Shown: positions 16,724 to 62,257 of the stretch, piece by piece
Numbering within the stretch: position 1 is the stretch's first letter
Layout of the letters: each line of letters starts with the position of its first letter
IMG/VR virus record: IMGVR_UViG_3300044910_000908
Span: 17,068-81,067 of that record
Direction: 5' to 3' (one strand)
Origin: a virus
Length of the DNA stretch: 64,000 bases
The notes under the pieces: generated by a model
What the model saw: only the letters and a program-made list of their open reading frames with translations
Database searches by the model: none
What the model was told of the DNA's origin: nothing
Position numbers and translations under genes: made by a program

Positions 16724-17071
16724 TTATCTATATCCTCTTGTTGTATAATGTTCACCATATTGAACTCTTGATGCTGCACCTTCAACAACAAAATGTCCAT
16801 AACTTCCCATACATTGTTCATACAAATCTCTAAACACATATTCAGAAGCATAACCTTGATAATTAGTTTTTACTTCAGATTGAATAAAAGCTTGTTTATA
16901 ACATGATTCATAAGCTTTTCTCCAAGCTTGATAATTTACTCCAGAAGAGGAATTATGAGGATTAGGATACCAACCTGTATTATTTCCATATCTCCATTCA
17001 GGACCATACATATTTTCAGCAAAAACATTATTAACTGAAAATAATAAAATTGCTATTATTAGAGTTTTCAT
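16724..17071 (-). CDS. Secreted hypothetical protein
   Basis: Signal peptide MKTLIIAILLFSVNNVFA. Confidence 0.55.
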   Translation of the reverse strand: MKTLIIAILLFSVNNVFAENMYGPEWRYGNNTGWYPNPHNSSSGVNYQAWRKAYESCYKQAFIQSEVKTNYQGYASEYVFRDLYEQCMGSYGHFVVEGAASRVQYGEHYTTRGYR

Positions 17072-26199: not shown

Positions 26200-27297
26200 T
26201 TAACCTCTTGTATTATTAATAATTCTAATACTATCTACTTCTGAATATCTAATACTTTGGGTAGAATAGTATTGATTAGTTACTACTTCTAGAGACATAG
26301 TTTTATCTTCACGTTGATGGATACGTTGTTCAAGCAAATATAATGGAGACATAAATTCAAATCCAATAATGTAATAATTATGTTGTCTCAAAATAGTAAC
26401 CCATTGTCTTCTAGATTTTGGGCTTAGATTTGTATTGTCAATAATAATATTTTTATTTTGTTTAATAAATTCATTGAATTTTTTTCTAGTATATTCATTG
26501 AATTTTTCTGCATGTTCATTACAATAATTCCAAGCTTGTTTATATAGTTCTTTTATATTTGTTGTATGTTCTGGAAATATGTTAGAATAATATTCAATTC
26601 TATAATTATCAAAACTAAAGATAACAGTATTAGCATCTTGCATTAATTTTTCAGAAACTGTGCTTTTTCCAGAACCAGAAGGACCAACCAAAATATAAGC
26701 AGTTAGACCTGAATTATGTTTTTGATCTTGTTCTTGGAGATATAGAGTTTCATTAACCCAATTAGTAACAAATGGAATTTTACTATCTTCAGTAATTCTC
26801 CCACCAGCATCTGATAATAGAACATCAGCAAACATTTGAAGATTTCCAGTCAATGCTCTTGTACTATCAATTCTAAAATCATTATAACATTTTCTACCAT
26901 AAGGCAAATGATTTTCAATCATCCATCTTACTTGACGAATTTGCAAATCAGTTAAACCAAAATTGTTATTAGATAATACATAATCTTCAAATATTCTAGC
27001 AGATACTAGTTCATGTCCAGCATATGATTTATGCTGACCACGTTTTTCTGTAAATTTTTCTACTTCACATTTTGGTTTACCAACATCATGAAATAGAAGA
27101 GCCAATTGAGAAAGTAGTCTTTCATTTTCACTTCTATTTAGAAAGAAGTGTTCTTTATAAAAACGAAGTGTCATTTGTGTATGGACGGCAGTATTTTCTT
27201 CTCTATGATAAGGAGAATTTTCCTGAGTCATGAGCATGTGATGCCAGTATGATGTTTTAGTAAAGTTATGATAGATGTCTTCAAATTGTGTAGTCAT
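26200..27297 (-). CDS. HD-domain phosphoesterase fused to polynucleotide kinase (HD-Pnk RNA end-healing enzyme)
   Basis: YHRE..VHT, FHDVGKP, GHE in the N-half; GPSGSGKS and IIIDNTN in the C-half. Confidence 0.85.
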   Translation of the reverse strand: MTTQFEDIYHNFTKTSYWHHMLMTQENSPYHREENTAVHTQMTLRFYKEHFFLNRSENERLLSQLALLFHDVGKPKCEVEKFTEKRGQHKSYAGHELVSARIFEDYVLSNNNFGLTDLQIRQVRWMIENHLPYGRKCYNDFRIDSTRALTGNLQMFADVLLSDAGGRITEDSKIPFVTNWVNETLYLQEQDQKHNSGLTAYILVGPSGSGKSTVSEKLMQDANTVIFSFDNYRIEYYSNIFPEHTTNIKELYKQAWNYCNEHAEKFNEYTRKKFNEFIKQNKNIIIDNTNLSPKSRRQWVTILRQHNYYIIGFEFMSPLYLLEQRIHQREDKTMSLEVVTNQYYSTQSIRYSEVDSIRIINNTRG

Positions 27298-39286: not shown

Positions 39287-40021
39287 TTACTTAGAAAACT
39301 TAGCCATTATTTGAGCTACTGCAATAGGAACAGTTGCTGAACCTCTTCCTCTAAAACAAGTATAAAGTTCTTCAAATTTATATCTTAAATCAGTATATGC
39401 TGGAGTTGGATTACATTCATAAATTTTAGCCATATTTGAAGCAGCATTTCTAACTAAATTAGCGGCTGGCCATACTTGACCACTAGTCCCAACTACTAAC
39501 ATAACTAATGAATTATCAGCTGCAGTTTCTGCTAATTTAAAATCTTGCTCATTTAAATCTTCTCCAAACCAAACCACATTAACTCGCATATTAGCACCAC
39601 AACAAGAACATATAGGAACTTCTGCTAATTCCCAATATTCTGCTTCATTAGTAGTATATTCGCAAGTTTGACATCTTAATGCTTTTAAATCTCCATGTAA
39701 TTCAATTACATTTTTTGAACCTGCTTGTTGATGAAGTCCATCAATATTTTGGGTAATTAAAAGAAAATCATGTCCTTGTTTTTCTGCCCATTCTTCTAAT
39801 TTTACTAATTCTTCATGGGCTCTATTAGGTTTAATTGTTTTAAGATTATCATATCTTTGTTTATAAAAATCCCAAACTAATTGTGGATTTTTTTGAAATC
39901 CTCTTGGAGAAGCAACATCTTCCACTCTATGATTTTCCCATAAACCATTATTATCCCTAAACGTTGGAACACCACTTTCTGCTGATACTCCTGCACCAGT
40001 AAATACTGTTATATATGACAT
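39287..40021 (-). CDS. cobB: Sir2/CobB NAD-dependent deacylase
   Basis: TGAGVSAESGVPTFR, TQNIDGLH, ELHG, zinc Cys pairs, VVWFGE, VGTS. Confidence 0.93.
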   Translation of the reverse strand: MSYITVFTGAGVSAESGVPTFRDNNGLWENHRVEDVASPRGFQKNPQLVWDFYKQRYDNLKTIKPNRAHEELVKLEEWAEKQGHDFLLITQNIDGLHQQAGSKNVIELHGDLKALRCQTCEYTTNEAEYWELAEVPICSCCGANMRVNVVWFGEDLNEQDFKLAETAADNSLVMLVVGTSGQVWPAANLVRNAASNMAKIYECNPTPAYTDLRYKFEELYTCFRGRGSATVPIAVAQIMAKFSK

Positions 40022-40519
40022 TTTTCTTATAACTCCTTATCTAATTCAAAACATTCATTTATTGCTTTACATATAATAGGGAAAGCTCGAGGAATATATT
40101 CTATTAAAAACATTATTGAAACAAAAACATTTACTCCTGGAATGAGCGCCAAAAAAGCATTCCACATTAAATCTCTACGAGTTCTAATTGCTATACTAAG
40201 AGCAAATGCTTTATCTGTCAAAATCACCCAAATTGCTATGATGTTAATCAAGTAAGATAATGCCATTATGAAATTCATTTTACACCTTCAAAATTAATTG
40301 AGAATGGAGCATAATGGAACAATAGATACCAACAATAAACAACAAATACGTAAAATATAAGTGTCCAAAACTTAGTAGCAAAAGTATTTGGAACTCCTCC
40401 AATATTATACTGCCCAAGATTATTGACAGCAGCCAAATATCCTGCAACTACCAAATAAAGACAAATTGCCAAACAAAACAACCAACCTAATATCTGGAAA
40501 AACATTATTTATACTCCAA

Positions 40520-41101
40520 TTATTTTTTTCTAAAATCTAAAATTTGTATCTCTTTTTCTAACACTAAACAATTTTCCATTATTGGAGCATTGACAACTTT
40601 AAAGTTTTCCGAATTATCATCTTCCTGAATAACTTGTCTAACAACCATATGTAAATGACCTAATGCATTAAACCCAACTAATTCACTCCCATCTTCATTT
40701 GGTTTGGCGCCCCAAAAATCATCCTTCTTTGAAATCTCCACAATATCTCTTGTTCCAGTTTCAATTAATGCATCACGATATTTTTTATGCTGAGCAGCTT
40801 TGAGACGTAAACACCAATACATAATTTGAACTCTATCGTCATCAAAACCTCTATACGTATGCGTTTTCCGATACTTTTTGGATACCATCTTAGCACCCAT
40901 ACCACTTTTCTGTTCTAATATCTCTTGCTGAATTTCAGGATGAAACACAAATCTCATCATTTGATAAAGATTTTCTGTTGATGGAACTAAAATGTCTTTA
41001 GACAATCTTATCGGAAATCCTCCAGTCATATTACCGAATTCACCCCATTTATCTTTTGCTCTAGAAAAAGCACATACCTCTTCAACTTTATAAGTATTCA
41101 T
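40520..41101 (-). CDS. NADAR family protein
   Basis: FGNM, STENLYQ, LIETG, IVE, DDFWG, GFNALG. Confidence 0.88.
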   Translation of the reverse strand: MNTYKVEEVCAFSRAKDKWGEFGNMTGGFPIRLSKDILVPSTENLYQMMRFVFHPEIQQEILEQKSGMGAKMVSKKYRKTHTYRGFDDDRVQIMYWCLRLKAAQHKKYRDALIETGTRDIVEISKKDDFWGAKPNEDGSELVGFNALGHLHMVVRQVIQEDDNSENFKVVNAPIMENCLVLEKEIQILDFRKK

Positions 41102-45158: not shown

Positions 45159-45878
45159 TTATTTTTCCAATTCTTCTTTTAGAATTCTATTGACTTCAGC
45201 AGGAATAAATTTACCTTGACCAGCTTTCATAATTCTACCAACAAAAAATCCAATAACCTTTTGATTACCTTCTTTATATTGTTGAACTTCTTTTGGATTT
45301 TCAGACATTAATTGATTTACTACACTAACAATAACAGAACTATTATCCTGTTGTTCTAATCCTAATTTTTCTAAAATTAAATAAACATATTCATCATTTA
45401 TTTTCATTTCATCTAGCATTGGCCTAATGTCTTTTACAACTAATAGTTTATTAGAAATTAATGATAATAATTCAAACAATTTATGTGGTTCAAATTGATA
45501 TTGGCTAATAACTAATTCTACAAATAATGAAGCTAATATTTTTCTTTCAACTTGTATCCATTTATCTAATACAATAAACAAGTTAAGATAATAAGCATAA
45601 AGTTCAAATAGCGTATTTTTCTTATCTAATGGAGTCAATTCAGAATAATCTGGAAGATAATCAACAATTAATCCACCAATTCTAATAAGTTCATCTTTAG
45701 AAGCTTCTGGCAATAATTCAGCATACACTTGTAATAAAGTGCTCATTGTTTGTAATTGCTTGTAATTATCAACAACATTAAATGCTGCTGAACAACTATT
45801 AACAGAAGTCAATTGCTGAGAAAAAGATAATTGAGTATCTGATTTGTTAGATAAAATTTCTTGTTTTAAACTAGTCAT
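45159..45878 (-). CDS. GatB/YqeY C-terminal domain protein
   Basis: ENPKEVQQYKEGNQKVIGFFVGRIMKAGQGK..PAEVNRIL matches the GatB tail; no GatB catalytic domain. Confidence 0.8.
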   Translation of the reverse strand: MTSLKQEILSNKSDTQLSFSQQLTSVNSCSAAFNVVDNYKQLQTMSTLLQVYAELLPEASKDELIRIGGLIVDYLPDYSELTPLDKKNTLFELYAYYLNLFIVLDKWIQVERKILASLFVELVISQYQFEPHKLFELLSLISNKLLVVKDIRPMLDEMKINDEYVYLILEKLGLEQQDNSSVIVSVVNQLMSENPKEVQQYKEGNQKVIGFFVGRIMKAGQGKFIPAEVNRILKEELEK

Positions 45879-46653: not shown

Positions 46654-47472
46654 TTAAACTCCTTCAAAAATTTGACCTTCATTATTTAAAAAATAAGTAA
46701 CACCTGTTTTATGATTAATGATTGACAATAGAGCATCATCTTTATATCTATTATGTTTCATAAAACATGCTCCTGTATCCATATAAACATGTTTTTCCAA
46801 TCGTAATACTTTCATATCTTCTTTATCTAAGAAATGAGGAGTATGTCCTACATAAGTAGTGGATAATTCAGAAGAATGATATCTAAAAGGATTATCATTA
46901 ATGAAATAATCACTTTCATAATCTTTGTAAATATTTCTACCCCATATTATTTCTTCTTCTTCGGTTGAAGTAAAATTCCAAGTATCAACATCTTTATTAC
47001 TAACTCCAAAAATACTTTTAAAATTCAATAATTCAGCATGACAGACATTGAACCGATTTTCATTTTCACCAACAACCATTATAGTCGGAATATTTTCAGA
47101 CATCCAAATAGCAATTTCTGTTAATTCATCATCATTTTCAGAAAAAATCCAATTGCCACCATTTGATAACCATAAATCGTAATCATTAGGACTTTTAAAA
47201 ACAATTGAATTAATCATCATATCCTCATGATTTCCTTTTACAAAATACCAATTATCTCGAATTCGAAATTCTCTTAAAAGTTCAATTGACTTTGGTCCTC
47301 TATCAACCAAATCACCAACTGAAAATAGTCTGTCATTAGAATTAAAACCAATATGATCTAATAATACCAGTAATTCGTCAAACATACCATGCAAATCACC
47401 AACAATATAATCATTGCCTAATGAATTAGATGGTAAATATAAAAGTTTAGGAGATACTTTAAGACCGTTCAT
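46654..47472 (-). CDS. Ser/Thr protein phosphatase-like metallophosphoesterase (NinI/PphA type)
   Basis: GDLHG, GDLVDRGP, GNHE, GHTP, DTGA. Confidence 0.92.
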   Translation of the reverse strand: MNGLKVSPKLLYLPSNSLGNDYIVGDLHGMFDELLVLLDHIGFNSNDRLFSVGDLVDRGPKSIELLREFRIRDNWYFVKGNHEDMMINSIVFKSPNDYDLWLSNGGNWIFSENDDELTEIAIWMSENIPTIMVVGENENRFNVCHAELLNFKSIFGVSNKDVDTWNFTSTEEEEIIWGRNIYKDYESDYFINDNPFRYHSSELSTTYVGHTPHFLDKEDMKVLRLEKHVYMDTGACFMKHNRYKDDALLSIINHKTGVTYFLNNEGQIFEGV

Positions 47473-48701: not shown

Positions 48702-48974
48702 TTATTTATGTTGCTGTTTTTTAAATAATCTATCTAATTTTTCGTTAACGTCTGCGGAATATTGAGCAGCACGATTTGCTGCTTGTTCAGCTCTACTTGC
48801 TTTAACTTGAGCATCTTGAGCTGCCATTTTAGCATCATTTGCACTCAAATTAGCTGCATCAACACGACCACTTACACTATCAATTTGACTTTGTAAATTT
48901 TCAATATCACTAGTTGATGCACAACCAAACATAACAATTGACATTACTAAAATCATTAAACTTTTTACTACCAT
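48702..48974 (-). CDS. Lpp/OprI-family alanine-zipper outer-membrane lipoprotein
   Basis: Lipobox MFGC, Ala heptads, NEKLDRLFKK and terminal Lys. Confidence 0.88.
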   Translation of the reverse strand: MVVKSLMILVMSIVMFGCASTSDIENLQSQIDSVSGRVDAANLSANDAKMAAQDAQVKASRAEQAANRAAQYSADVNEKLDRLFKKQQHK

Positions 48975-48998
48975 TCTATTTCTCCTAAAAATATAAAA

Positions 48999-49439
48999 TT
49001 ATTTAGCTTCTGCTCTCGCATAAAGCATTTTTGGTGCTTTTTCAAAATACAAAAATAAAGCAGGACATAACCATCCAGGAATATTAGGCAATTCAATATT
49101 TGGATGGTTCCAAACATACCAATTACCAACAATATCTCCTAAATACATTTTTCCTTCTTTAACCCATTTTCCTTCTAATTGATAACCTTCAAAAGGTTTA
49201 TCACTAAAAATTAATTTAAAACCTTTATCAGCATCTTTAATTGGTTGAGTAATATAATCAGTCACTAAATCAGTTCCAGATACTAATGCTTCATACTTCA
49301 AACCTACTCGTTCATCGTCAAATACCCAAACATCTTGTCCTTCTATCTGATTTCCTTCACCATCATCCATAACATAAGCTGTTCCAGATAATCGATAAGG
49401 ATAAATTTCTAACATCTTTGTTTTCTTTCTTCCAAACAT
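48999..49439 (-). CDS. Conserved hypothetical protein (DUF6717-like)
   Basis: WVFDDERVGL, GWLCPALFLYF. Confidence 0.6.
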   Translation of the reverse strand: MFGRKKTKMLEIYPYRLSGTAYVMDDGEGNQIEGQDVWVFDDERVGLKYEALVSGTDLVTDYITQPIKDADKGFKLIFSDKPFEGYQLEGKWVKEGKMYLGDIVGNWYVWNHPNIELPNIPGWLCPALFLYFEKAPKMLYARAEAK

Positions 49440-49455
49440 ATAATGACTCTATTAT

Positions 49456-49559
49456 TGGAGCTCGAGAGAGGATTTGAACCTCCGACCGGCTGATTGTTCA
49501 ATACTCTCTTTAGAAAGCATTCAACAAATCAGCTGCTCTACCAACTGAGCTACTCGAGC
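49456..49559 (-). tRNA. tRNA-Thr(UGU) interrupted by a 28-nt insert after the anticodon
   Basis: GCTCGAG/CTCGAGC acceptor, D arm GCTC-AGTTGGTA-GAGC, GCTGA/TCAGC anticodon stem, T loop TTCAAAT, encoded CCA; removing 49496-49523 gives a canonical 76-nt tRNA. Confidence 0.9.
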
Positions 49560-50292
49560 AATATTTTTTATTTATAATATTTTAAAAGTAATGTAATAAC
49601 CATTAACTTTCATTTACTCCACGTTTAGTTAATTCTTTTTTAATCAACGCGTTTCTTTTCTTTTTATTGCCGTAAGCTGCTTGCAATTTATCAATTTTCA
49701 TTGTTGCTAATACTTGACCATGTTTTGAAACTTTTGCTGACATTAACTTCTCCTCTTTGTTGTAATAAAATATTTCTTAATATTCTTTATATAGCAGAAA
49801 ACATTAAGAAATATTCTACATATTTCCTGTTGAAGTGTTTAACTTTTCTTTTATAAGAAGTTTTATCTTCTTCAACTTTTGGTTTATTAAATTGATGACA
49901 ATGTTTTGCCACAAAATTATTTATTATTGGTTTGTTTTTCTTTTTCATATTTAATTTCTCCTATTATAACAATCTGATTGCCAATGACCATTATTATTTA
50001 TATGACATATTTTTTCACTTGACATATTAGGTAATTTTACATCCATAACATAACCAAGTGATACTATCAATATCAATAATGTAAGTAGTATTAATTTTAT
50101 TGTAAATTTATCCATCTTTGCATTCTCTTTGCCAAACAACGTGATTACTATTATTTCCTTTAACATATACAACACACTGTTGTAATCCTGCTTTTGCCAT
50201 TTGTTCATTTTCTGTTTTGCTTATATTGTCTGATATAAGCAAATAAATTAGAAAGAAAATTATACAAAAAATTAAATAATTATTTTTATCCA

Positions 50293-50727
50293 TTAAACAA
50301 TTCTCGCTTCTTCAAATTTAACTAATAATTTGCCAATACTATCATTATTCTGTTTAACTAAATAATATCCATAATAATAATCGCATATACCATCAATAAT
50401 TCCTTTATCTAATTGTGTTCCTATTTCATAGGGTGGTTCAACATTATTTTCTTCAAACCATTTTTTTCGTTCTTTTTGTAAATAATCATTAGCTATATAA
50501 TCTAAATCATCCAATGCGTTTACAAATTGTAAATCTACATCCCAACCATAATGGGTATCTAAATATTTCCCAATTTCATATCCATCGGATATTGAAGAAT
50601 ATCGATAACCATCTATCAGTATAGATAAATCGCATCCATGCTCTTTTGAAAAAGGTTCAAATGCTTTTTGTAGTAATTCAATTGTTTCTGTTGGTGCTTT
50701 AGGATATTTATCCATTGGATGTGTCAT
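50293..50727 (-). CDS. Hypothetical protein
   Basis: 144 aa ORF. Confidence 0.55.
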   Translation of the reverse strand: MTHPMDKYPKAPTETIELLQKAFEPFSKEHGCDLSILIDGYRYSSISDGYEIGKYLDTHYGWDVDLQFVNALDDLDYIANDYLQKERKKWFEENNVEPPYEIGTQLDKGIIDGICDYYYGYYLVKQNNDSIGKLLVKFEEARIV

Positions 50728-50938
50728 ATTTATTTCCTCGTTTTAACTTTAAATAAGGTTGGACCTTCAATTAATACTTTTTCACATTTAAAATTTATCT
50801 GACTTGACGATAAATTAGTAAATACAACTTTTTCGTCTGATAAACATTTACTTTGGCTAATTGTAATTTCTTCTTCTGTTGGTTTTCTTTCAACAGAGGA
50901 ACATCCAACAACTAATAAAATTAATATTAAATATCTCA

Positions 50939-51448
50939 TTATAAATATTTTTTAATAAATTCAAATTTTACTTCATTGCTATTAACATCAATATAAGAAC
51001 AATTAAATTTATTTAAAATACTTTTAATTTCTTCAGATAATTCTTGTGATTGAGCTTCATCTTGATTTCTACCAATTTGCTGATATTCATGTGTTCTATG
51101 TAAAAAGAAATTAATGTTCTCATAAGAATTAAAAATTTCAGAAGTTAATTCAGCAAGTAAAGGATAATAAGATAATTCCTTTGATTGATAAGCAATATTC
51201 ATAATTAAAGGACTATCAGTAATTACATAATCCACCTTACCTTGCAATCTTAATAATCTTCTATGTTGCTTAGCAAAAATATATAACTGGTCAGAAAATA
51301 AATTCTGACGTTCTTCCCATACTGCATCCTTAGCATATTCAGTAATCTCCTCTACATTATATCCTGCTATTTTCATATCAGCAAAAATGCGAGCTCTTAA
51401 AGTTGATTTACCACTACCAGGAGCCCCGATTAGATTAATGATTTTCAT
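50939..51448 (-). CDS. P-loop nucleotide kinase (NadR/Ttd14 AAA-like)
   Basis: INLIGAPGSGKST, EYAK, VITDSPL, GRNQ. Confidence 0.75.
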   Translation of the reverse strand: MKIINLIGAPGSGKSTLRARIFADMKIAGYNVEEITEYAKDAVWEERQNLFSDQLYIFAKQHRRLLRLQGKVDYVITDSPLIMNIAYQSKELSYYPLLAELTSEIFNSYENINFFLHRTHEYQQIGRNQDEAQSQELSEEIKSILNKFNCSYIDVNSNEVKFEFIKKYL

Positions 51449-52873
51449 ATACTACCCTAATATGCTTGTTAAAATATTTTCAGGAATACTGCTGTCATCA
51501 ACAGAACAAACTCCTTCATAATTAAAATGAACTGGAGTATTATCATTGTAATAATATTCTCCGCCTTTCCATCCTTCAAAGTGATGATTAACAGCATCTT
51601 TAAGATAATCTAACATTTGTTGGATAGTAATATCATTTTCATTTGGTGGAAAACTTACATGATCATAATATCCTCTATGAGCATGTGGATAACCAAATCC
51701 AAAAGCACAAACTTTATCTTTTGGCTGAGTTTCTAAAAGCATTCTTAATTCTTTTATAGTCATTTAATCATCCTCTCCTCTATCCCAATTCAAATTAAGT
51801 GCCTCTTGATAACCATCCATAAATATTCCATTTCTCCATTCATCAAATTGGGCAAAATCGATTTTGCGCTGTTTAACTAATTCAAACACCGTTTCAGGAG
51901 TCATTTGTTTAATTTCAAAATCATAAAATGAACCATCTGATAATGTTATTTGTATACAACTCATTTCTATATCCTCTTATTAATCTATGAGTATATAATA
52001 TACCAAAACTATTAAAAAGTAAATATTTAAATTTGATATTTGAATTTACTTAACAATTTATTTGCTTCTTCTTTATTATTTTCCAATACTGCTTTTAGAT
52101 CTTGCTCATGTTTTGCTTCTAAAATATTTAATTGTTCTTTAAGCTTTAATCCAGCTTCTTCAGGAATAATGAATTGAGGTCTAAATAACGCATTTCCATA
52201 ACTTCCGATTTTTACTAAACCATCATCTCTCACTTCATCAATAACACCGCATAATAAATATGGAAATCTATCATACTTCCAAAATGCCATTAAATTTTTA
52301 TCCATTAGATTTTACCTCTTCAAAATAAAAATGCAACGTTTGTTCTTTAGAAATTTGTTTATAACATCTTGCAATGTCACAACGAAAACTATCCATTCTG
52401 AATAAACATAATTGACATTTTTCATTTAAAGTAGATGAAACCATTTTTACTAATGGTCCACCACCTACGTAGTGTGCTTCACCAATTTTGAAACCATTAA
52501 CTGTTATATCTTCTGACATGTTATATTCTCTTCATCTGTTTGTGTAAATAAAAAAGCTTCTGATTTACTATCATTATACATCACAATCTCGTAAAAGTAA
52601 ATATCTTTTTTATTTAAAACACCTCTAAAAGACTTATCAATATTCAGCATTTGCGGTAAATTTGCAACTTGATTAAAGAATTTTACAACTCTATCTCTAT
52701 AAGTTTCTGAACTATCTTGAGCTAATTTGATTGTTACTCTGGTGGGAGTAATAGTCAATTTAAATCGACTATTACCTTTATCTTGAATTTCTAATGTTTT
52801 CATCTTTTTATATACTCTTTTTTCATCGAATTTGAAATATTATACACTAAATCCCAAAAAAGTAAAACTATTT

Positions 52874-54064
52874 TTAATAAAATCTCAAAATTGTTTTATA
52901 GGTATTGGCTAATGGAGCAGGCATAGTCATTAAAACTTTATTAACCGTTTCTACTTTTACATTATTATCCTGTAAATATTGTAGAACTTGTTCATATTGA
53001 ATTAATGGATAATTTTCATCAGTTGTAGTTTCAGGGTAAAATGAATGAAAATTTAATATTAACCATTCATTATTGGCTATGGCATTGTCAATCCACTTCT
53101 CAATCAACCCTACTGGTGTCCATTTATCAACACTAATTCTATTGATATTGGTTCTATCCACTATTGGTAAAATATTATTCATTCCATCAATATTTAACAT
53201 TGCTAAATAATTACTTTTTACAACATTAGCAACTCTATCATTATGAATACCATTAGGATAAGCGAATACTGAATTCCCCTTAGTATTGTTAGATGTTAAG
53301 TAATTTTTAGTAGTGGAAATAATAGAACTTAATTTAGTAGCTGATACAGTTTTAAGATTGTATTTTACTGAATGTCCGCCAATTTCCCAATTTGAACTAT
53401 TAATCTGATTGAATTCTGTAGTTGATATAAATGGAGATGTATTAAAAACATTCTCATCAATATAAATACTTGTGTCAATATTATAACTTTGAGATAATTG
53501 TAAAGCATCCATTATTGTTTCATTGCCATCATCTATAGTTATTGAAACAATTGGATTAGTTCCTGTGCTAGGAATAATTTCTAAATTTGAAATTTGTGCT
53601 GAAATTCTGGATCCGCCTCTATCTCGCAATCTCCACATAAATGAATTAATTTGAGATGCATTAGGAGAACCGTATTTGTATAATTCACTAAAAGGAATAA
53701 CCACATTTATCCATTGATTATTAGTAGGAGATTGAATATGCCAACTTAAATCAATTTCATATGTATTATTAAAATCAGTTCCAGAACTTGAAAACATTAA
53801 AGAAAATTCATCTAATTGGGACCAATCAGAAACTTTAATTCTTGCTCTAATACCTGATTTTTCGATAGAAATAGGAGTATCATAATAAGAAAAAACTCCA
53901 GAATATTCCATCCATCCTGTAGTGTTTAAAGAAATAATATTAGAAGTTGTATTAACTGAATACGACGTGTAATCATAATATTGATATAATTCCTGTTTTA
54001 CAATTTTACTATATGTTAATGTTGGCAATAACATTAACATAATAAATACTATTTTTTTAATCAT
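52874..54064 (-). CDS. Secreted polysaccharide deacetylase (CE4/NodB) with N-terminal beta domain
   Basis: Signal peptide; SITIDDG, EIGGHS, FAYPNG, LNFH. Confidence 0.85.
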   Translation of the reverse strand: MIKKIVFIMLMLLPTLTYSKIVKQELYQYYDYTSYSVNTTSNIISLNTTGWMEYSGVFSYYDTPISIEKSGIRARIKVSDWSQLDEFSLMFSSSGTDFNNTYEIDLSWHIQSPTNNQWINVVIPFSELYKYGSPNASQINSFMWRLRDRGGSRISAQISNLEIIPSTGTNPIVSITIDDGNETIMDALQLSQSYNIDTSIYIDENVFNTSPFISTTEFNQINSSNWEIGGHSVKYNLKTVSATKLSSIISTTKNYLTSNNTKGNSVFAYPNGIHNDRVANVVKSNYLAMLNIDGMNNILPIVDRTNINRISVDKWTPVGLIEKWIDNAIANNEWLILNFHSFYPETTTDENYPLIQYEQVLQYLQDNNVKVETVNKVLMTMPAPLANTYKTILRFY

Positions 54065-54165
54065 ATATTCTAATCTCCTTTATTAATATCTCGTAAAATT
54101 AATCTTCTAAATTTCTTATCAACATCATGAGACCAAACTCTATGATTTAAAATAAGAATGCTCTG

Positions 54166-54271
54166 CTGACACGGAGGGACTCGAACCCCCAACCCTCTGA
54201 TTAAGTGAAGAACTCTCTATCCATGAAAGTTCTTGGGTCAGTCAGATGCACTGCCATTGTGCTACATGTCA
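54166..54271 (-). tRNA. tRNA, most likely Asn(GUU) (alternative Lys-CUU), interrupted by a 34-nt insert; no encoded CCA
   Basis: TGACATG/CGTGTCA acceptor (U1-A72, G73), GCAC/GTGC D stem, TCTGA/TCAGA anticodon stem, T loop TTCGAGT; removing 54205-54238 gives loop CU-GUU-AA. Confidence 0.85.
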
Positions 54272-55258
54272 GCAGAGCATTCTTTATATACTTTTATTTA
54301 TTAAAAATCCGGGGACTCCAGTTTGAGCATTGTTAAGAGGCTTGAAGTCCAATTGTTATTTTATTTATTCAATAAAATTAATCTTAAAACAAACTCTGCC
54401 TTTAAATGATTTCCACCAAGTAATAACAAAACTATCAGCTTTTTCAATTTGCTCTTTTTCAGATTAAGCTCTATGCTTAAACTTATCAACAAAAATGTCA
54501 ATACCTTTAAGAAATAAAAATACACTGAAAAGACCAATATATGTTCCTATACATATCAACCCTAGACCCAAACTAGTAACTTCTGGCCATATTTGTTCTG
54601 GATGATACCCACCTATTACTATAATTCCAAGACAAATGATGGGCCAAATTAACAAACAAAATACGAATACAGATAAAAGTGATAGTTTAAAAGCTCCAAC
54701 GAAAACTTGTCTAACATATTTACAAAAATTTTCACTAGGATAGACATGATCAAAACTAGCTAATTTATAATGTAAGGAAGATTTTTTAAAATTTAAAGTT
54801 TTCATTTTATATTACTCATTTTGTAAAAGGTTTTTTCAGTTATTGTAAAACTGCCATTCGTCAATAACTTTTTTTGCATTCCATATTTTTTCATCAACTC
54901 ATAAACATTTATTGTTGTATCAGTTTCTGCTTGATTGCCAAATTCTTTTAACTTAAACCAACTAATATGAACAACTTTCCAAGCATAATAGAAAAAATGA
55001 TTAATATAAATTATATCCTTTTCTCTTTCAGTCAACTCCAAATCTTCTAATAAAGATTGATATTGAATATCAACTTCACCATAAGGGAATCCAACTGAAT
55101 CAGAATTATTCATTATATAATAACTTCTAGCAACTGAAATAATTTTTGATAATTTTGTTTCTTCAGTAGCAGCAATTTTAAAAGCAGTCTCAACGTTCAT
55201 CACTTATCTCCAATTTGTTAAGATAAATTATATAATACTTCTCGTTAAAAGTAAACAA

Positions 55259-55585
55259 TTATTTTTCTTTACCTGCATTTAAATTAAATACATCTTCAAT
55301 TCTACTATCAACAAAAGCTTCTTCAAGTTTATATCTCCAAACAGCAAAACCAGCCTCTTTTAAATCTTCAACTAATTTAATTGTTCTTACACTTAAATCA
55401 TCTCTATCTTGAGAATGACCTGTCATGAATGTATCATATTTAGAACGTTCTTCAGTATCATTTTCTCGTTTCTTCATTAATAAATCAGCTACTTTGAAAT
55501 TATGTTTCTTTGCAAGTTGTGAAGCTTCTTGCAATCTTTCATCAAAAACTGGTTCAATTGTAATATGACATTCTAGATACAGCAT
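55259..55585 (-). CDS. Hypothetical protein
   Basis: 108 aa, ECHITIEP and RYKLEE motifs. Confidence 0.6.
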   Translation of the reverse strand: MLYLECHITIEPVFDERLQEASQLAKKHNFKVADLLMKKRENDTEERSKYDTFMTGHSQDRDDLSVRTIKLVEDLKEAGFAVWRYKLEEAFVDSRIEDVFNLNAGKEK

Positions 55586-57459
55586 TTAATTCTCCTCTTA
55601 TTTCCATTGATGTTTTCTTTTAGATTGAGTTTTCCAGCTTTTATCATTATAACTATGTTTTTCTCTATCCCAGCTATCAGGTGGAATAGCTTTATTTCTG
55701 TATTTCACATTTAAATCTAAATCAATAATATCAATATCTTTAATAGCTTCTTTATTGCTTCTAAATGTTTTGATATTAATATAATGACCCCATGTTTTTT
55801 TCTTTCTACCATGGCGACGATTATGATGTTTTTTATTATCTTGTTTTTTACGTTCTTTCAAGAATTCCAAATATTGGATATCGATATATTCTTTAGGGAA
55901 CCAATTTCCATCTTCATCATGAACAGAATAATAAGTTCTATAAATGAAAGAATTTAATGGTTGTTCATGAGTTCTATAAATCCAATCCCAATCTTTAAAA
56001 TCATTTTTTATATAATAATAATTATATTGGAAATGTTTAAAAAATTGTTTCCAGTTTTCAAAATAATAAAATTTAATATGATTACTAACAGTATAATAAA
56101 CATAAATGCCATTTTGATTTTGAATTTTCATTGTAAGGGTCTCCATATTGTTAAGTAAAATTACCTAACGGAAACCTTCATTTTTTAGATGTAATATTTT
56201 TTTCATATTTTATTTAATTCCGAATTCTTCTTCAATCATTTTTCTATTATAAACAAATTTTCTATTTTCAGCAATATGCATTTTATCTCGATTTAATTCT
56301 AATTCTTCTTCATTATCAAAATTAAACGAAAACCAAGTTGTTGTATCATCTTCTTCTTTATTATCTGTTTTGTTTAATGCTATCATGATAAATTCCTTAA
56401 TAATTTAAATTCTTAAATAAATTTTATCACAAATTTTTAAAAAATAAAATTATTAATGTTAAAACTGTTTGTTATTTAACGTTAAATTAGCAGCAATTAT
56501 TGCTAATTCTTGCGGAGAAATAGTTTCTGCCCAATGGATAAAATCTGCAAGTGAATGAATCCATAACAACCATCTATGGTTAATTTCATCTACTTGCGAT
56601 AAGGTTGGTGTTAATTGATGTCTAATTACATCACACCGCTTAAAGATACCATCTTCAGCAATTTCTCCTTCTGTATCTTCTGATAAAGCAATCCAATCGC
56701 CTCTTTTAAAATATTTAAATAATCCAGTAGATGTTTCAATTTCTTGACCAGATAACAATGCTTTCAAAACCATAGCCACTGTTGCAGGTGATGTTTCAGA
56801 TTGTTTATTCAACATAACATTTCTCCAATATTTTCAACATGGATAATATTATAAACAGTTTTTCTGCAAAAGTAAATAACTATTTAAAATAATCTGGAAC
56901 TTTATTTTCCTGTATTTCTTCATTACAAAATCTATAGATATCGTCATGAGAATTTGGATAAAAATTTCTAATCAATTTATCTTCTAAATGTTTAATAGCA
57001 TGGTTCCAAATAAATTTTGCTTGATGTTCTGAAACGGTAGAACCTTCTAAATATTTTGAATAAACTTCTTCAAATTTCATGCTAATATCCTCGTTTTTCC
57101 CAACCATTTTCTACCCGTTTTTTCATCAATCAAAATTTCAGTCTCTGTACCCACCAATTGTCTAGACTTACGGTCAAAAACCATCCCATACTGCACACTA
57201 TACTTCACACTCCTTGCATAACTCCTTGTCTCCGCTACTATCACCCACCCAACAACAATAATCAACAACCACATTACAATCATAATAACATCAATCATAC
57301 AAATGCAGCAAATACGCCAAACATTTGGAAAATGCCTACTAAAATTTCAACAGAACCTTCACATCTATGTCCTTGATTATATCTAAAATTACCAATATAA
57401 ATTAACATAAATCCTAATAAAACTAATCCTAAAAATAAATAAAGCATAAAAATTTCTCG

Positions 57460-57729
57460 CTAGTCGTGATAATGGTGATGTCTATGATAATCGTGATGGT
57501 GGTCCCAATCTCTTCTTCTACGATGAGGTCTCGTATCTCTATATACATCATATCGTTCTACATAATGAGGAGTAGTATAATATGGTTGAGGAGTATATTG
57601 GAAATAAGCATAAGGATTTACAACAACAGGAGGTCGATAATAAGGATTACCAAAACCTAAATAAACATCAACATCTGCTAATAATGAAGGAGATATTGAC
57701 AATAGTAATAACATTAATATTTTTTTCAT
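57460..57729 (-). CDS. Secreted Pro/Tyr-rich protein with His-rich tail
   Basis: Signal peptide and low-complexity body. Confidence 0.6.
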   Translation of the reverse strand: MKKILMLLLLSISPSLLADVDVYLGFGNPYYRPPVVVNPYAYFQYTPQPYYTTPHYVERYDVYRDTRPHRRRRDWDHHHDYHRHHHYHD

Positions 57730-57730
57730 T

Positions 57731-58318
57731 TTATAAATCCTTCAAAATTAATCGTAAGTGAGCTTTATCATTTCCATATGACCAAATCCTATCATCAAAA
57801 TCTGCATCATAAGAACCATGATGTAATTTAACAGATTTTTCAACAATTGTTTTATTTTTTAAATCAATAATATCAACAATAATATCAGTATCTTTACTTA
57901 AAGATGTCCATAATTTTCTTGCTCCAAAAAATTGTTCTAAATCGCCTAAAATATTAAATTTTAATTTTTTAACAAAATATCGATATAACTGTTTAGCAAT
58001 TCCTTTACCTTGTTGTGTATTAATAACTTGAATTAAATCAACATTTTTTAAATTATTTACATTAGGAAAATGTTCATCTGATAAATCACATTCAACAATA
58101 ATTTTATAGTTAGTATCTTCTTGTTCTTGAATAATTTTATAATGATTTTCCATTTGGATTAATTCAAAAACAAAATCTCCAACTTTAAAATCATCTAATT
58201 TTAAATATTTGTTTTGTTTAACAAAATTAGATAATATTCCTAATGATGATTGGGAAATATAATCTCCCTCTCGTGCTATAGACATTTCTGTTAAATTGAA
58301 GATTTCTTTAACAAGCAT
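57731..58318 (-). CDS. GNAT-like acetyltransferase
   Basis: VINTQQGKGIAKQLY acetyl-CoA motif A, GARKLW. Confidence 0.6.
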   Translation of the reverse strand: MLVKEIFNLTEMSIAREGDYISQSSLGILSNFVKQNKYLKLDDFKVGDFVFELIQMENHYKIIQEQEDTNYKIIVECDLSDEHFPNVNNLKNVDLIQVINTQQGKGIAKQLYRYFVKKLKFNILGDLEQFFGARKLWTSLSKDTDIIVDIIDLKNKTIVEKSVKLHHGSYDADFDDRIWSYGNDKAHLRLILKDL

Positions 58319-59173
58319 TTATTTTAAAGCAGCAATCATTTCATTAACTTCTTTTAAATCTTCATCATAAAAACGTGACCAAACTTTAACTACTTTCATT
58401 GCATGTTTAGCAATCGCTTTAATTTCTTTAGCCCATTCTTTAATACCTTCTTTTAAGGTTGTTCTTAAAGCTGGAGATTTTTCTGTAATAGAAATTTTAG
58501 TATGTTCTTCAACTAATTGTTTTACTTGTTCTTCTAATTCAGGAACCATTTCAACTAACTTTTCTAAAATTGCGCTATAATCAACTTTTTCTGATTTAAC
58601 AGTAGTTTTTTTAGCTAATGTTAATGTTGCAGAAACAGTATCAACAATACGAGTTAATACTTCATCATCTGCATTAAACAATTCAACAACTTCTTCTTTA
58701 ATATTTTCATTCAATTCACCTTGAACTTTTTGCAATTGTTCAATACTTTTTTGTAATTTCTTATATTTAGAAATCAATTTAGTAAATTTACCACTTGTAT
58801 TACCAGTTAATGTCACAATGACTTTTTCAACTTGTCCTTTTGTTTTCTTTTCTTCATATTCTAACTCAGTTTTTCTGCTTTCAGAAATTGTTGCAGAATC
58901 AAAAAGCTTTTTAATTTTTTTTGCTTCAGGTAGCCAAGATTCCACATTAACTCTACCATCATATTTATAAAACTCATTATTCAACGGAGTTATAATTTCT
59001 TGTTGAAATTTTCTATAATAAGGATTGTTCTTATTCTTTTTAACTTCATTATAAATCAATGTCATTTCTGATTGTGGATTCTTTTTTACCCACTCTGACA
59101 TCGTCATGTTTTTTGATAACTTTCTTGTTTGTGATGGAAAAATTTCACGTAATAACATTTTATTATACTCCAA
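58319..59173 (-). CDS. Coiled-coil hypothetical protein
   Basis: 284 aa ORF with AATAAATA upstream. Confidence 0.6.
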   Translation of the reverse strand: MEYNKMLLREIFPSQTRKLSKNMTMSEWVKKNPQSEMTLIYNEVKKNKNNPYYRKFQQEIITPLNNEFYKYDGRVNVESWLPEAKKIKKLFDSATISESRKTELEYEEKKTKGQVEKVIVTLTGNTSGKFTKLISKYKKLQKSIEQLQKVQGELNENIKEEVVELFNADDEVLTRIVDTVSATLTLAKKTTVKSEKVDYSAILEKLVEMVPELEEQVKQLVEEHTKISITEKSPALRTTLKEGIKEWAKEIKAIAKHAMKVVKVWSRFYDEDLKEVNEMIAALK

Positions 59174-59894
59174 ATACTATTTAAATAATTATTTATTCTA
59201 TTCAGAGATAATTAATGGTTTTTTATCACACTCTTCTTGCCAAACTTTAAAATACTCTCCTCGTCCTGGAACTAAAAAAGAACATTCTTTTAAACCTTTT
59301 TCATATCTAAACATATCATAATCATAATCTTGTTTAATCCATAAACCTACAAATATTGCTATTATAAAAACAATAATTATTATTGTTTTTTCAGTTGGAC
59401 CTAATTTATTAAAATCATTACTATTTGACATTTATTTCTCCCATAAGTTTTTCCACCATTGATTAGTTTCAACATTTAAAGTTGCTTGATGTTGTATTTG
59501 AAAATCAAACCAAAAATCTTTAATTCTACAACAATCTTCTAATGATAATCTATTATGATCTATCATATCATGAAATAACCAACAATGTTTAAATACATTT
59601 AATTCTTCAGGATTTATACCAATCTCATTATGAATACATTCTCCACCAATATATCCTAAACCATTTGAAAGATATTGTGTTGAACAATACAAAATAATAT
59701 CATCTTCTTTATGTTCTTCTACATCATTCTCGTTAATTAATCCATAAATTTTTACAGATAATTCAAAATCATCCAAAGGATTATCATTATCATTTAATTG
59801 ATTTAATAATTGTGATTTATAAAATTCAAAAACTTTAACAATAGTTTGTTCTATTTTTATTAATCTTTCGTTTAAAGTTTCTAAATACTTATAA

Positions 59895-60533
59895 TCAATT
59901 GTCATTTTTTAACCTATTAGGTATTATTGGTTTATTCATCCAATGATCGTCTGTGACAACGTGGTTCTTTCTAACATATTTGGCAACACTATGTTTAAAT
60001 GCTGATATATGAAAAATATCTTTTAATCTAATTACAAATCCTTCTTGTTTTTCAAAATTCATTGTATTAATTAATTCATTTATAATATCTTCATTATACA
60101 TTCCATCATATAATACTGGAACTGTTGTTAATCCTAAGTTTCTACATTCTTCAACAGTATCATCCCAATGACAACATAAATCATTAGAATACGTTGAAAA
60201 TACTTCAAAATAAGAAGTTAAATTATCGTAAGGAATACTGTGTTGAGCATAAAGATTTTCACCACAAAATCTTAAACTTTCATGAACTTGATATGCAATT
60301 AAAGGAACAACATTGCCTTTAATCCAATTTCGAGAAGGATGATTATTACTATCAATAGAACGAGCGTGAAGATAACCATCAGCATAAATCGTGGTATTTT
60401 CGCCATCTCGTTTTTCAGAAATGATAATATGTTTATTTTTAAAATGGTCCATATTCCTCAGAACTTTATCATCTGATGTAGCACCAGGTGATTGAGGAAT
60501 ATGGAATGTTCTTTGATATTTAATTCTGTCCAT
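59895..60533 (-). CDS. ATP-dependent RNA ligase (Rnl2-like nucleotidyltransferase domain)
   Basis: EKRDGEN motif I, GEN, FEVF, EGFV, AKYVR. Confidence 0.85.
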   Translation of the reverse strand: MDRIKYQRTFHIPQSPGATSDDKVLRNMDHFKNKHIIISEKRDGENTTIYADGYLHARSIDSNNHPSRNWIKGNVVPLIAYQVHESLRFCGENLYAQHSIPYDNLTSYFEVFSTYSNDLCCHWDDTVEECRNLGLTTVPVLYDGMYNEDIINELINTMNFEKQEGFVIRLKDIFHISAFKHSVAKYVRKNHVVTDDHWMNKPIIPNRLKNDN

Positions 60534-61000
60534 TACAAACTTTTCAACAAATTTTCAGGTTTAACCATTTCTTTATTGATATAAAAATGGCCGTGGGAAA
60601 ATACAACTTTTTTATCATTTACTTCAAGCATAATTCCACGATTTTTAAAAGGAATATGCTTTGTATTCAAGACATCTTTCAAAGATTTCAAATCAGTGAA
60701 TGATAATTTTTTAGAAGAATCACCTCTTCTTTTACCAGAAGAAACTTCTTCATGTTCTCCATTTTTACGCATTTCTTTTAATTCTTTATTAAGAGCAATT
60801 AATTTTTCATCCATCGCTCTATGGGTTTCTTTAACAAGTTTATAAGTTGAAATTGCTACTTCATCATTTGGATTATCTTTTTTATATGCTCTAGCAACTT
60901 CTAATTCTTTATTAACAACTAGTTTTTGTTTAGCAAATTCTGCTTTTGCTGCCAATTTTTCTTTGTATGTTTGAGTTTTCATCTTAATTCTCCAATTCAT
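60533..61000 (-). CDS. Basic hypothetical protein
   Basis: 155 aa Lys-rich ORF downstream of an early-type promoter. Confidence 0.55.
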   Translation of the reverse strand: MNWRIKMKTQTYKEKLAAKAEFAKQKLVVNKELEVARAYKKDNPNDEVAISTYKLVKETHRAMDEKLIALNKELKEMRKNGEHEEVSSGKRRGDSSKKLSFTDLKSLKDVLNTKHIPFKNRGIMLEVNDKKVVFSHGHFYINKEMVKPENLLKSL

Positions 61001-61110
61001 CTTTTTGAGGGGTTTTTAATTCAGTATTTTCTGAACTTGGATATATAATATACTATCTATCGGAAAAGTAAACAATTATTTTCAAAAAAGTGTTAATTAC
61101 TTAACAAAAT

Positions 61111-61184
61111 TGGAGCAGATTGTGAGAATCAAACTCACTTCTCTTGGGCGGAAACCAAGGGCACAATCAATATACCAAATCTGC
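61111..61184 (-). tRNA. tRNA-Gly(UCC) with atypical D and T loops
   Basis: GCAGATT/AATCTGC acceptor, U73, CCA, CTTGG/CCAAG stem with TT-TCC-GC loop. Confidence 0.8.
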
Positions 61185-61226
61185 ATATTTAAAATTAATT
61201 GTAGCATATTTTTACTATTTATAAAT

Positions 61227-61261
61227 GAATCTCGGCGCTCTACCAATTGAGCTACACCTGC
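61227..61261 (-). pseudogene. Isolated 5' half of a tRNA (Gly-like)
   Basis: GCAGGTG TA GCTC AATTGGTA GAGC G CCGAG ATTC, then sequence breaks into TATAAATA; no matching 3' half seen. Confidence 0.75.
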
Positions 61262-62180
61262 ATTATTATTTTAAAGTTAATTCATATCCTCTAATATAAC
61301 TTTTAATTTTTCTTTCACGCCATTCTAATAAAACATAAGGTAAATCAAAATACTCATTGTTTTGATTATTTATAACAATAATTCTACCATACCAATATTT
61401 ATTAGTAAATAATCTTGTTATTTTCCAAATAGCAATATCAAATAATGCATTCATTATTCCCATTAACGTCCAAATTAAACATGGAATTGCTATTAAACAA
61501 GTTAAAAACCAATAATACAGTTTCAGATATTTCATTATTAATTTACTTGGTATAATCTAATAGCAGTAGTTTTTGAGGCACTAATACCTGCACTATCAAA
61601 TACTGATACAACTTGTTTTTCGTGTGTAATAATCGAAGTATAAGCTTCATTTGCTTCTGCATAAGAATCAAATTCTACAACATCTTGCGCAACAGAAGTA
61701 TGACCAGTTTCAGATACAGCAACAGTTTTTACTAAAATTTTATGTTTCATTTCTTCTTCCTCATTATGTTTTTTGAATATGTGTTAATTATAAAGAACTA
61801 GTTATCAAAATTTATAGAAATTTGGCTATATCAAGCTCAATCATAATTTCATACTCATACCATCTATGACGAGAAAAATTATGTTCTTTAAACTCTTTAA
61901 AATGATTAATGACTTTAGGACTATATTTCAACTCCTCTAACTTAACCAAAAGCGCATCAAGATATGTGATGATATTATTCTTAGCCCAAGAACTCAATAT
62001 CTCTCGTTGAGATTTTTGAACCTCTTCTTCAATAGTAAAATCAGAATTATAAATCCCTTCAGGAGTAATAATACCAGCTTTTACTAGAAGTCGTCTTTTA
62101 TCTTCAACTGTTAATTTATTTATTTGCTCAATAATCAAATCTATTTTGTTATCATCAATCATATTATTTCCTATCAAAAA

Positions 62181-62257
62181 TGGTACTACCGGTCAGAGTC
62201 GAACTGACACTGTCTGGAATCTAAATCCAGTGCCTCTGCCAATTGGGCTACGGTAGC
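62181..62257 (-). tRNA. tRNA-Leu(UAG) with short variable loop
   Basis: GCTACCG/CGGTAGT acceptor, A73, CCA, CTGGA/TCCAG stem with TT-TAG-AT loop, T loop TTCGACT. Confidence 0.9.

Follow-up and report, generated by a model that had tools for sequence, protein, structure and literature searches.

How could a phage tRNA gene still yield a working tRNA when a 28-nucleotide (nt) hairpin interrupts its anticodon loop? The question is raised by a tRNA-Thr(UGU) gene in a 64,000-nt stretch of viral DNA (hereafter, the window; positions 17,068 to 81,067 of IMG/VR virus record IMGVR_UViG_3300044910_000908). To our knowledge, textbooks allow bacteria only self-splicing tRNA introns and treat protein-dependent tRNA splicing as an archaeal and eukaryotic trait. 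An earlier note, made from the letters of the window, had proposed a short protein-spliced intron or an unspliced decoy tRNA. We have found that the insert belongs to a family of phage hairpins built like the bacteriophage T7 R1.1 site of RNase III. We propose, giving the idea an even chance, that host RNase III would excise the hairpin and that a phage ATP-dependent RNA ligase would reseal the tRNA. The wider suggestion is put forward more tentatively, namely that mobile RNase III-mimic hairpins, cut by the host and followed by rejoining of the loop by a phage repair ligase, could constitute a third tRNA-splicing route in bacteria and phages.

The locus scores 59.5 bits against Rfam family RF00005 (gathering score 29; 49459-49559, model positions 1-71), and its anticodon loop is 35 nt long as encoded and 7 nt once 28 nt are removed. 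ARAGORN in intron mode reported a 28-nt insert here and a 34-nt insert in a second gene of the window; both inserts were placed arbitrarily, and the first gene was labelled 'Val(aac)'. The 28-nt placements that leave a 7-nt loop read AAC, UAC, UGC or UGU. We place the insert between U36 and A37 because blastn alignment ends, natural anticodon arms and a comparison of tRNA bodies agree. A blastn search of 50,697 phage records matched 133 records, and the alignment ended at query nt 36, just past UGU, in 39 of 40 rows among the matches listed; 25 of the listed rows carried a tRNA annotation, 23 of them tRNA-Thr and two tRNA-Gly. Metagenomes were scanned with both halves of the anticodon arm separated by a free gap of 0-30 nt. 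This yielded at least 119 loci, 93 of which were examined; all 94 matches at these loci had a gap of 0, and ARAGORN called tRNA-Thr(tgt) at 90. When joined in silico, the window exons were identical to the best of these 90 natural tRNA-Thr(tgt) genes at 70 of 76 positions. A nearest-neighbour comparison of tRNA bodies ranked Thr first with a score of 0.50, under the level of 0.6 at which this classifier is reliable (leave-one-out, 184 of 378 correct overall and 55 of 55 at scores of at least 0.6). By these comparisons, the gene is an ordinary tRNA-Thr(UGU) gene with exactly 28 nt between U36 and A37. Among the Thr codons of the phage, 42% are ACA.

Independent assemblies of other samples contain tRNA genes of this architecture, and a 5.1-kb stretch is present at 0.96 of sampled words in a run from another sample and study; an assembly artefact, in favour of which nothing was found, is accordingly a negligible prospect. 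Close relatives of the locus itself were not recovered: the exact tRNA-Thr body with a gap of 30-60 gave 0 matches in viral contigs, the neighbouring 396-amino-acid (aa) protein used as a query found no related locus, and blastn of 48900-50300 gave a sole, chance-like match of 56 nt.

The 104-nt RNA is predicted to fold as a cloverleaf in which the anticodon arm is extended (-44.4 kcal/mol; z -5.59; equalled by 0 of 200 shuffles). The minimum-free-energy (MFE) fold contains the insert stem AAUGCUUUC/GAGAGUAUU, which has 9 base pairs (bp) and a UAAA loop, and it also pairs GUU, made up of G35-U36 and the nt that opens the insert, with the terminal AAC of the insert. The centroid fold adds U34-A37 to give UGUU/AACA. 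Both junctions thus lie within a helix in the predicted fold, and the bulge-helix-bulge (BHB) motif, two 3-nt bulges 4 bp apart, is absent from the MFE and centroid folds. No Rfam match to the insert was found down to E = 1 besides the surrounding tRNA. The earlier note's description of the locus has held up throughout: a canonical tRNA-Thr(UGU) with an encoded CCA, a 28-nt insert between positions 36 and 37 that forms a 9-bp hairpin and buries UGUU with its 3' end, and no apparent BHB.

An anticodon buried within a helix would suit an RNA that is never spliced. The 104-nt form, or halves of it cut by RNase III, would then work as such, either as a decoy or sponge for an anticodon nuclease or tRNA-binding defence or as a regulated store of tRNA halves; phage tRNAs are known to counter tRNA-targeting defences, according to passages of PMC10264068. 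We consider this fairly unlikely, given that U33 and A37 are kept, that the joined form is a common natural tRNA-Thr arm, and that a decoy needs no register that restores a perfect 7-nt loop across isoacceptors.

The isoacceptors in question come from other phages. Both interrupted tRNAs of the window carry a hairpin top in which CUUUC and GAGAG flank the loop, a motif with two matches in 64 kb against 0.36 expected. Scanning IMG/VR for this top followed by a T-loop yielded 16 loci, five of which lie within an interrupted tRNA and represent four distinct sequences. Inspection of the tRNA clusters of the carrier records added two members whose hairpin tops differ by one pair. In a tighter motif scan, 14 of 18 loci were chance matches outside tRNAs. 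The family includes seven short inserts of 27-29 nt, in window tRNA-Thr, in the Lys, Arg, Leu and probable Asn genes of record G002, and in the Arg genes of G001 and G006. Their carriers are four phage lineages, and G003 has the same probable-Asn gene as G002. Two inserts of 34 nt with a CUUUC/GAGAG-type top are found in the second interrupted tRNA of the window and in a Leu gene of G004, which was assigned to Leu(UAA) by body similarity (score 0.61). The G+C content of the carriers ranges from 28 to 42%. A motif scan of one genome per species across 185,579 prokaryote species gave 51 matches, 49 of them outside tRNAs and the remaining two in tRNAs of archaeal metagenome-assembled genomes with unrelated introns. 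As far as these scans reach, the hairpin insert family appears to be confined to phages.

Members of the family are shared by phages that have little else in common. By tblastn (E <= 1e-5), 19 of 139 window-genome open reading frames (ORFs) match G001, G002 or G004 and none matches all three, although the test can miss remote homologues and 23% of the window genome was available to it. A single one of the 139 ORFs matches G002, and yet 24 of 27 aligned positions are identical between the Lys insert of G002 and the Thr insert of the window. Three of 183 G002 ORFs match both G001 and G004, namely two GIY-YIG DNA endonucleases and one DUF7487 protein. Near-identical inserts in such phages point to horizontal spread, and the tRNA clusters of G001 and G002 hold GIY-YIG homing endonuclease genes, which may move tRNA-cluster DNA between phages. 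Both features would be expected of a selfish palindromic DNA element that inactivates tRNA genes and leaves decaying pseudogenes. We regard that explanation as very unlikely, as the tRNA bodies are intact (46-60 bits), the insert stems carry compensatory changes, and the Arg genes of G001 and G006 differ by paired changes in the acceptor, D and T stems while their inserts are 1 nt apart. In G001, which is 98% complete, ARAGORN identified 26 tRNA genes; the 23 uninterrupted genes cover 18 amino acids, without Arg and Val, and among the genes that could be assigned (two other interrupted ones being set aside) the only Arg tRNA is a 28-nt-interrupted gene reading Arg(UCU). Lys, Asn(GUU) and Arg are present only as interrupted genes in the G002 tRNA clusters that were inspected. 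Together with the paired stem changes, these cases argue for working tRNAs rather than decay, and the interrupted-only genes also speak against an RNA that is left unspliced.

The shape of the inserts was then compared with RNase III sites. Pertzev and Nicholson (2006; PMC1540722) describe, in the passages relied upon here, E. coli RNase III substrates of typically about two helical turns and a minimum helix of 11 bp, with products that have 2-nt 3' overhangs and 5'-phosphate/3'-OH ends. The upper stem-loop product of R1.1 is given there as 28 nt, the distal box as U-A and then U.G, of which the U.G is stringently required, and internal loops as able to restrict RNase III to one strand. The full anticodon arm of the window tRNA-Thr has about 20 bp, to which the anticodon stem contributes 5 bp, a middle section 3-5 and the hairpin its 11 positions; a single bulged U and a single G.G mismatch interrupt it, and so it attains the roughly two turns of an R1.1-type substrate. 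Its junctions, fixed by the exon comparison, lie 11 positions from the loop and are staggered to leave a 2-nt 3' overhang. The upper stem of T7 R1.1 (NC_001604, ~5859-5888) reads CAUUC-GCAA-GAGUG and the window insert CUUUC-UAAA-GAGAG; in each, 8 more nt lead to the 3' end, which is that of the 28-nt product in R1.1 and the 3' junction in the insert. Each has a tetraloop with 11 nt on its 5' side and 13 nt on its 3' side. Counted from the junction, window pairs 7-11 are C-G, U-A, U.G, U-A and C-G, and T7 R1.1 agrees at pairs 7, 9, 10 and 11.

The register extends to the other short inserts. With a 2-nt 3' overhang, 9-10 of 11 helix positions are paired in all seven (10 in window Thr). Pairs 8, 9 and 10 are U-A, U.G and U-A in every one, so that the distal box (U-A at pair 10, U.G at pair 9) is found in all seven and in T7 R1.1; C-G stands at pair 7 in six of them and at pair 11 in five. 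Pair 3, an antideterminant site if the boxes are mapped as we read the text of the paper, is A-U, U-A or U.U in all seven and never G-C. Pair 4 is G-C, the preferred proximal-box pair under a mapping onto pairs 1-4 taken from the same text, in two of seven. In six inserts, both overhanging nt pair with the final two nt of the 5' exon; in the seventh, one of the two does so. In an alignment of five arms, 89.9% of cells pair as opposed to 42-61% in slid controls, and 5 of 14 pairs have changed on both sides. Where nt 35 meets the final nt of the insert, the pair changes in step with the anticodon, being G:C in Thr, U:A in Lys and C:G in Arg, which indicates that the helix continues through the 5' junction and that both junctions are double-stranded. 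In the probable-Asn gene of G002, the same register places the insert at 35/36, one nt earlier, and suggests that the hairpin rather than the tRNA position would set the cuts.

We searched the carriers for enzymes that could act on such a helix. RNase III domains (PF14622, PF00636) were found in none of seven records, the window genome and G001-G006, three of which are 98-100% complete. The archaeal splicing endonuclease (PF01974) was absent from five of five phage records, with positive controls found in four archaea, and Tpt1 (PF01885) had no match in the same number. No candidate phage nuclease emerged from co-occurrence among the carriers by tblastn with 23% of the window genome. A conserved motif in phages that have no candidate enzyme in common suggests that a conserved enzyme of the host acts on it, a description that suits RNase III. 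Ligases are present: PF09414 ligases are encoded by the window, G001, G005 and G006, and T4 Rnl1-type ligases (PF09511) by G001, G004 and G006. Rnl1-type ligase reseals anticodon loops in T4. The window ligase gene is located among the tRNA genes. Its product matches phrog_24030 'RNA ligase' (9.5e-63) over profile positions 133-341 of 342 only, and KRDG supplies the motif I lysine (KxDG) of PF09414, Rnl2-like ligases; no close solved structural relative was found by sequence. A 155-aa ORF (60533-61000, minus strand) without a Pfam, PHROGs or NCBIfam match ends at the start of the ligase ORF, and the two (59895-61000) may represent one ligase gene that has been split or rearranged. The kinase part of the window's HD and polynucleotide-kinase-like protein resembles T4 Pnk (1ly1/1ltq) and CthPnkp (4mde), with a match to the TIGR04075 kinase region (1.4e-10) that is far under the cut-off. 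Kinase/phosphatase end-healing enzymes are usual in phages for tRNA repair.

From what is observed, that is, the gene, its exact 28-nt insertion, the helix geometry, the insert family and the presence of a ligase gene, we infer the cutting, the rejoining and the identity of the enzymes; the proposal is drawn wholly from sequence geometry and gene content. In the tRNA-Thr(UGU) precursor, the 28-nt hairpin would lengthen the anticodon arm to a helix of about 20 bp that copies a T7 R1.1-type site. Host RNase III would cut on both strands, directly after U36 on one and directly before A37 on the other, so releasing the 28-nt hairpin, its 3' end overhanging by 2 nt, and leaving a 3'-OH and a 5'-phosphate in the anticodon loop. 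A phage ATP-dependent RNA ligase would then join U36 to A37 with no healing step and produce a 76-nt tRNA reading ACA. The HD-Pnk-like protein and the metallophosphoesterase would serve ordinary tRNA repair. Of the two options offered earlier, the protein-spliced intron is thus favoured, because removal of 28 nt restores tRNA-Thr, the insert is in the R1.1 register, ligase and healing genes are present, and the sole Arg tRNA of a relative is interrupted; it is refined here to a putative RNase III double cut plus ligase, and the decoy is kept as a rival. The phage is present in lake metatranscriptome assemblies (four runs with 62-68% of sampled words). Logan contigs from three metatranscriptome runs and one DNA run, compared with 49000-62500, listed no joint that skips 28 or 34 nt, and contigs cannot show absence; the joints listed at tRNAs connect unrelated tRNA-like pieces, mostly from the DNA run. 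Mature tRNA is rarely captured by standard sequencing libraries.

Several points weigh against RNase III and a ligase as the agents. In the window hairpin, pair 2 is a G.G mismatch, and A-U takes the place of the G-C preferred in the E. coli proximal box; these preferences were measured on E. coli RNase III and may not hold for the host enzyme. Evidence from outside the model fixes the junction in only three of the seven short inserts (Thr, Lys and Leu). The three Arg genes could alternatively read UCG with blunt cuts, and the probable-Asn gene could read GGU or GUA. No Rnl1-type gene was found in the 81 kb of the window genome (23% of the genome), and the window ligase is a bare 212-aa nucleotidyltransferase domain. 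The HD-Pnk-like protein and the phosphoesterase are needless for RNase III ends and hint at 2',3'-cyclic-phosphate chemistry. In the 34-nt inserts, the 3' junction is in the R1.1 register, 10 nt past the wobble G by hand count, but on the Asn and Leu readings their 5' junctions precede the wobble U by 11 and 12 nt (hand count), not 8, and hence lie 3 nt (second window tRNA) and 4 nt (G004 Leu) outside the expected RNase III cut. Both 34-nt inserts have unpaired nt at the junction on the 5' side. Since they fit only at the 3' end, the model fully explains seven of the nine family members; RNase III may make only the 3' cut in the 34-nt inserts, with another activity responsible for the 5' end.

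Some of these points would be accommodated by a true intron that is removed by an endonuclease other than RNase III, a phage or host enzyme that has gone unrecognised and that binds the CUUUC/GAGAG top. Genes for an HD-Pnk-like protein, a metallophosphoesterase and a ligase are all in the window, pairs 8-10 are invariant in nine of nine family members, beyond the seeming need of a purely structural site, and the fixed 3' but differing 5' distance of the 34-nt inserts would better suit an enzyme with two rulers. We nevertheless judge this alternative unlikely. In the 28-nt class, the two junctions are staggered by 2 nt within an unbroken helix, the signature of RNase III and not of nucleases that act on loops or bulges; the carriers have no protein common to all, and PF01974 and Tpt1 are missing as noted above. 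The invariant U-A/U.G is moreover the RNase III distal box as published in the cited passages of PMC1540722.

Beyond the family, a general survey with a D-arm to T-loop pattern and 50-66-nt spacing returned more than 118 loci, of which 111 were parsed; the set is mixed, and no family count was drawn from it, as the nearest-neighbour classifier was too weak to fix the junctions there. Many of its members are tRNA-Tyr introns of eukaryote type on giant-virus contigs, and some are phage hairpin inserts without an obvious fit to a 2-nt overhang. Many IMG/VR contigs, some of them GVMAG-labelled, carry tRNA-Tyr(GUA) with a eukaryote-style intron right after position 37 (L053, L064, L067, L086, L093, L099 and others). 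Inserts of other kinds, without the CUUUC/GAGAG hairpin, were seen in G001 (42 and 47 nt; G001:84000-103500, stretch 973-1363) and G004 (37, 80 and 82 nt; G004:185000-198500, 843-975, 8817-8983 and 10735-10890), where the 80- and 82-nt inserts sit in tRNA-Ile(UAU)-like genes. The 476-kb record G005 has a tRNA-like stretch (L010 740-860) with a good acceptor stem, T arm and CCA, in which a CUUUC-loop-GAGAG hairpin and other helices replace the D and anticodon arms; it falls below the Rfam gathering threshold. In G002, the interrupted Arg(UCU) gene (L034 4886-4989) would have C33, not the near-universal U33, after removal of 28 nt. Seg-like GIY-YIG homing endonuclease genes lie in or beside the G002 tRNA clusters (L340 18064-18789, L339 5118-6059) and near G001:98200.

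The second interrupted tRNA of the window is probably Asn(GUU). Its nearest body neighbour is Asn(gtt) with a score of 0.57 (reliable only at 0.6 or above), and G73 and U1-A72 are presumably marks of Asn. A scan for uninterrupted relatives found none. The region 54152-54285 is predicted to fold at -62.5 kcal/mol (z -6.56) with 13 nt on each side paired mutually. The resulting flank and acceptor helix of about 20 bp would be long enough for an RNase III processing stem, and its flank arms resemble the stem of the 28-nt insert in tRNA-Thr. Coordinates of the features discussed are collected in Table 1.

Table 1. Interrupted tRNA genes, candidate processing enzymes and other tRNA genes of the window.
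Feature	Position	Strand	Evidence
Interrupted tRNA-Thr(UGU), 104 nt including encoded CCA	49456..49559	-	Rfam; ARAGORN intron mode; joined-exon identity
5' exon of tRNA-Thr, tRNA nt 1-36 with anticodon UGU at its end	49524..49559	-	blastn alignment ends
28-nt hairpin insert; 11 helix positions, UAAA loop, 2-nt 3' overhang AC pairing with G35-U36	49496..49523	-	
3' exon of tRNA-Thr, tRNA nt 37-73 and CCA	49456..49495	-	anticodon-arm scan; joined-exon comparison
ATP-dependent RNA ligase, nucleotidyltransferase domain only, 212 aa, motif KRDG	59895..60533	-	PF09414 7.3e-24
HD and P-loop polynucleotide-kinase-like protein (putative end healing)	26200..27297	-	AAA_33 4.7e-19; HD 0.0012
Calcineurin-type metallophosphoesterase, possible 3'-end healing enzyme	46654..47472	-	PF00149 3.3e-12; weak match to Pnkp phosphatase region
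Second interrupted tRNA, probably Asn(GUU), no encoded CCA	54166..54271	-	Rfam 54.2 bits; ARAGORN Asn(gtt) i(34,34)
34-nt insert under the Asn reading, CUUUC/GAGAG top, 7-nt loop	54205..54238	-	
3' flank of second tRNA, pairs with 5' flank	54153..54165	-	fold
5' flank of second tRNA; with acceptor stem gives continuous ~20-bp helix	54272..54284	-	fold
tRNA-Gly(UCC), uninterrupted	61111..61184	-	ARAGORN; Rfam
tRNA-Leu(UAG), uninterrupted	62181..62257	-	ARAGORN; Rfam

The window is part of an 81-kb virus record that CheckV estimates to be 23% complete and that is therefore a fragment of a jumbo phage. Its G+C content is ~28%, and minus-strand coding takes up ~89% of it. T4-like replication genes are present (gp32, a RecA/UvsX-like protein, UvsW, family-B polymerase and ribonucleotide reductase). 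Rfam recognises four tRNAs, all on the minus strand and two with a long unaligned block in the anticodon loop, and ARAGORN in default mode found the uninterrupted Gly and Leu genes and missed the other two. Other unusual cargo includes a 5-hydroxymethyldeoxyuridine (5-hmdU) DNA kinase-like protein, a hint of DNA hypermodification, a myo-inositol-1-phosphate synthase domain, a 619-aa RCC1-repeat protein, adjoining Sir2 and NADAR domain proteins, and a free-standing GatB/YqeY domain protein (coordinates of the unusual cargo genes: 9560-10864, 12007-13218, 33190-35049, 39287-41101 and 45159-45878).

If the proposed excision by RNase III and resealing by a phage ligase is true, it would represent a new intron class made from two ordinary enzymes. 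Phage RNA ligases would do more than repair damage and would take a regular part in tRNA maturation, and the undercount of phage tRNAs by standard bacterial tRNA finders would be explained. Full-text literature searches returned no description of hairpin introns in phage tRNAs or of RNase III in tRNA splicing.

Among known systems, group I tRNA introns are self-splicing ribozymes of a few hundred nt. They likewise interrupt bacterial-type tRNAs in the anticodon loop, whereas the insert here is 28 nt long and has no Rfam ribozyme match. The BHB introns of archaea and eukaryotes, which are removed by EndA or TSEN with RtcB or Trl1, resemble the phage inserts in being short, in lying beside the anticodon and pairing with it, and in removal by an endonuclease and a ligase. 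They differ in their position (37/38 rather than 36/37), in junctions that here lie in a helix with a 2-nt stagger, and in cyclic phosphate/5'-OH ends, where 5'-phosphate/3'-OH ends would be expected here. In T4, Pnkp and Rnl1 reseal tRNA-Lys cut by PrrC. That system shares a phage ATP-dependent ligase, a 3'-OH and 5'-phosphate in the anticodon loop, and kinase/phosphatase and ligase genes; there the host inflicts the damage and nothing is removed, whereas here the phage's own gene would program the break and 28 nt would be discarded. Passages of Iyer et al. (2021; PMC7824862) treat jumbo-phage RNA ligases as repair enzymes.

The nearest precedent by description is the Lak megaphages, whose conserved tRNA introns are called enigmatic, with no mechanism proposed, in the relevant passages of Devoto et al. 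(2019; PMC6784885). The earlier note had contrasted group I and II elements in bacteria with BHB introns in archaea and eukaryotes, a background that holds, but it had missed these phage introns. As in the window, the Lak inserts are highly conserved, non-ribozyme and placed in the anticodon region of phage tRNAs, including tRNA-Thr(TGT), with boundaries set by intron-free alleles; unlike in the window, the Lak Thr insert is described in those passages as possibly encoding a tRNA. The window family is likewise conserved with intron-free alleles elsewhere, and it is likened to Lak by description, not by insert sequence. Excision by RNase III and ligation would offer a testable explanation for these 'enigmatic' introns.

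The closest structural model is T7 R1.1 and its minimal substrate muR1.1, as presented in passages of PMC1540722. R1.1 lies between mRNAs and is cut only, whereas the phage insert lies within an anticodon loop whose flanks would have to be rejoined. Natural R1.1 is cut on one strand only, and cuts on both strands are proposed here. Pair 8 is A-U in R1.1 and U-A in the insert, and the proximal-box pairs differ, with G.G at insert pair 2. The likeness lies in the architecture of the hairpin: 11 helix positions from cut to tetraloop, a 3' cut 13 nt past the loop, C-G beside the loop followed by U-A and U.G, C-G at pair 7, and an excised product of 28 nt with a 2-nt 3' overhang.

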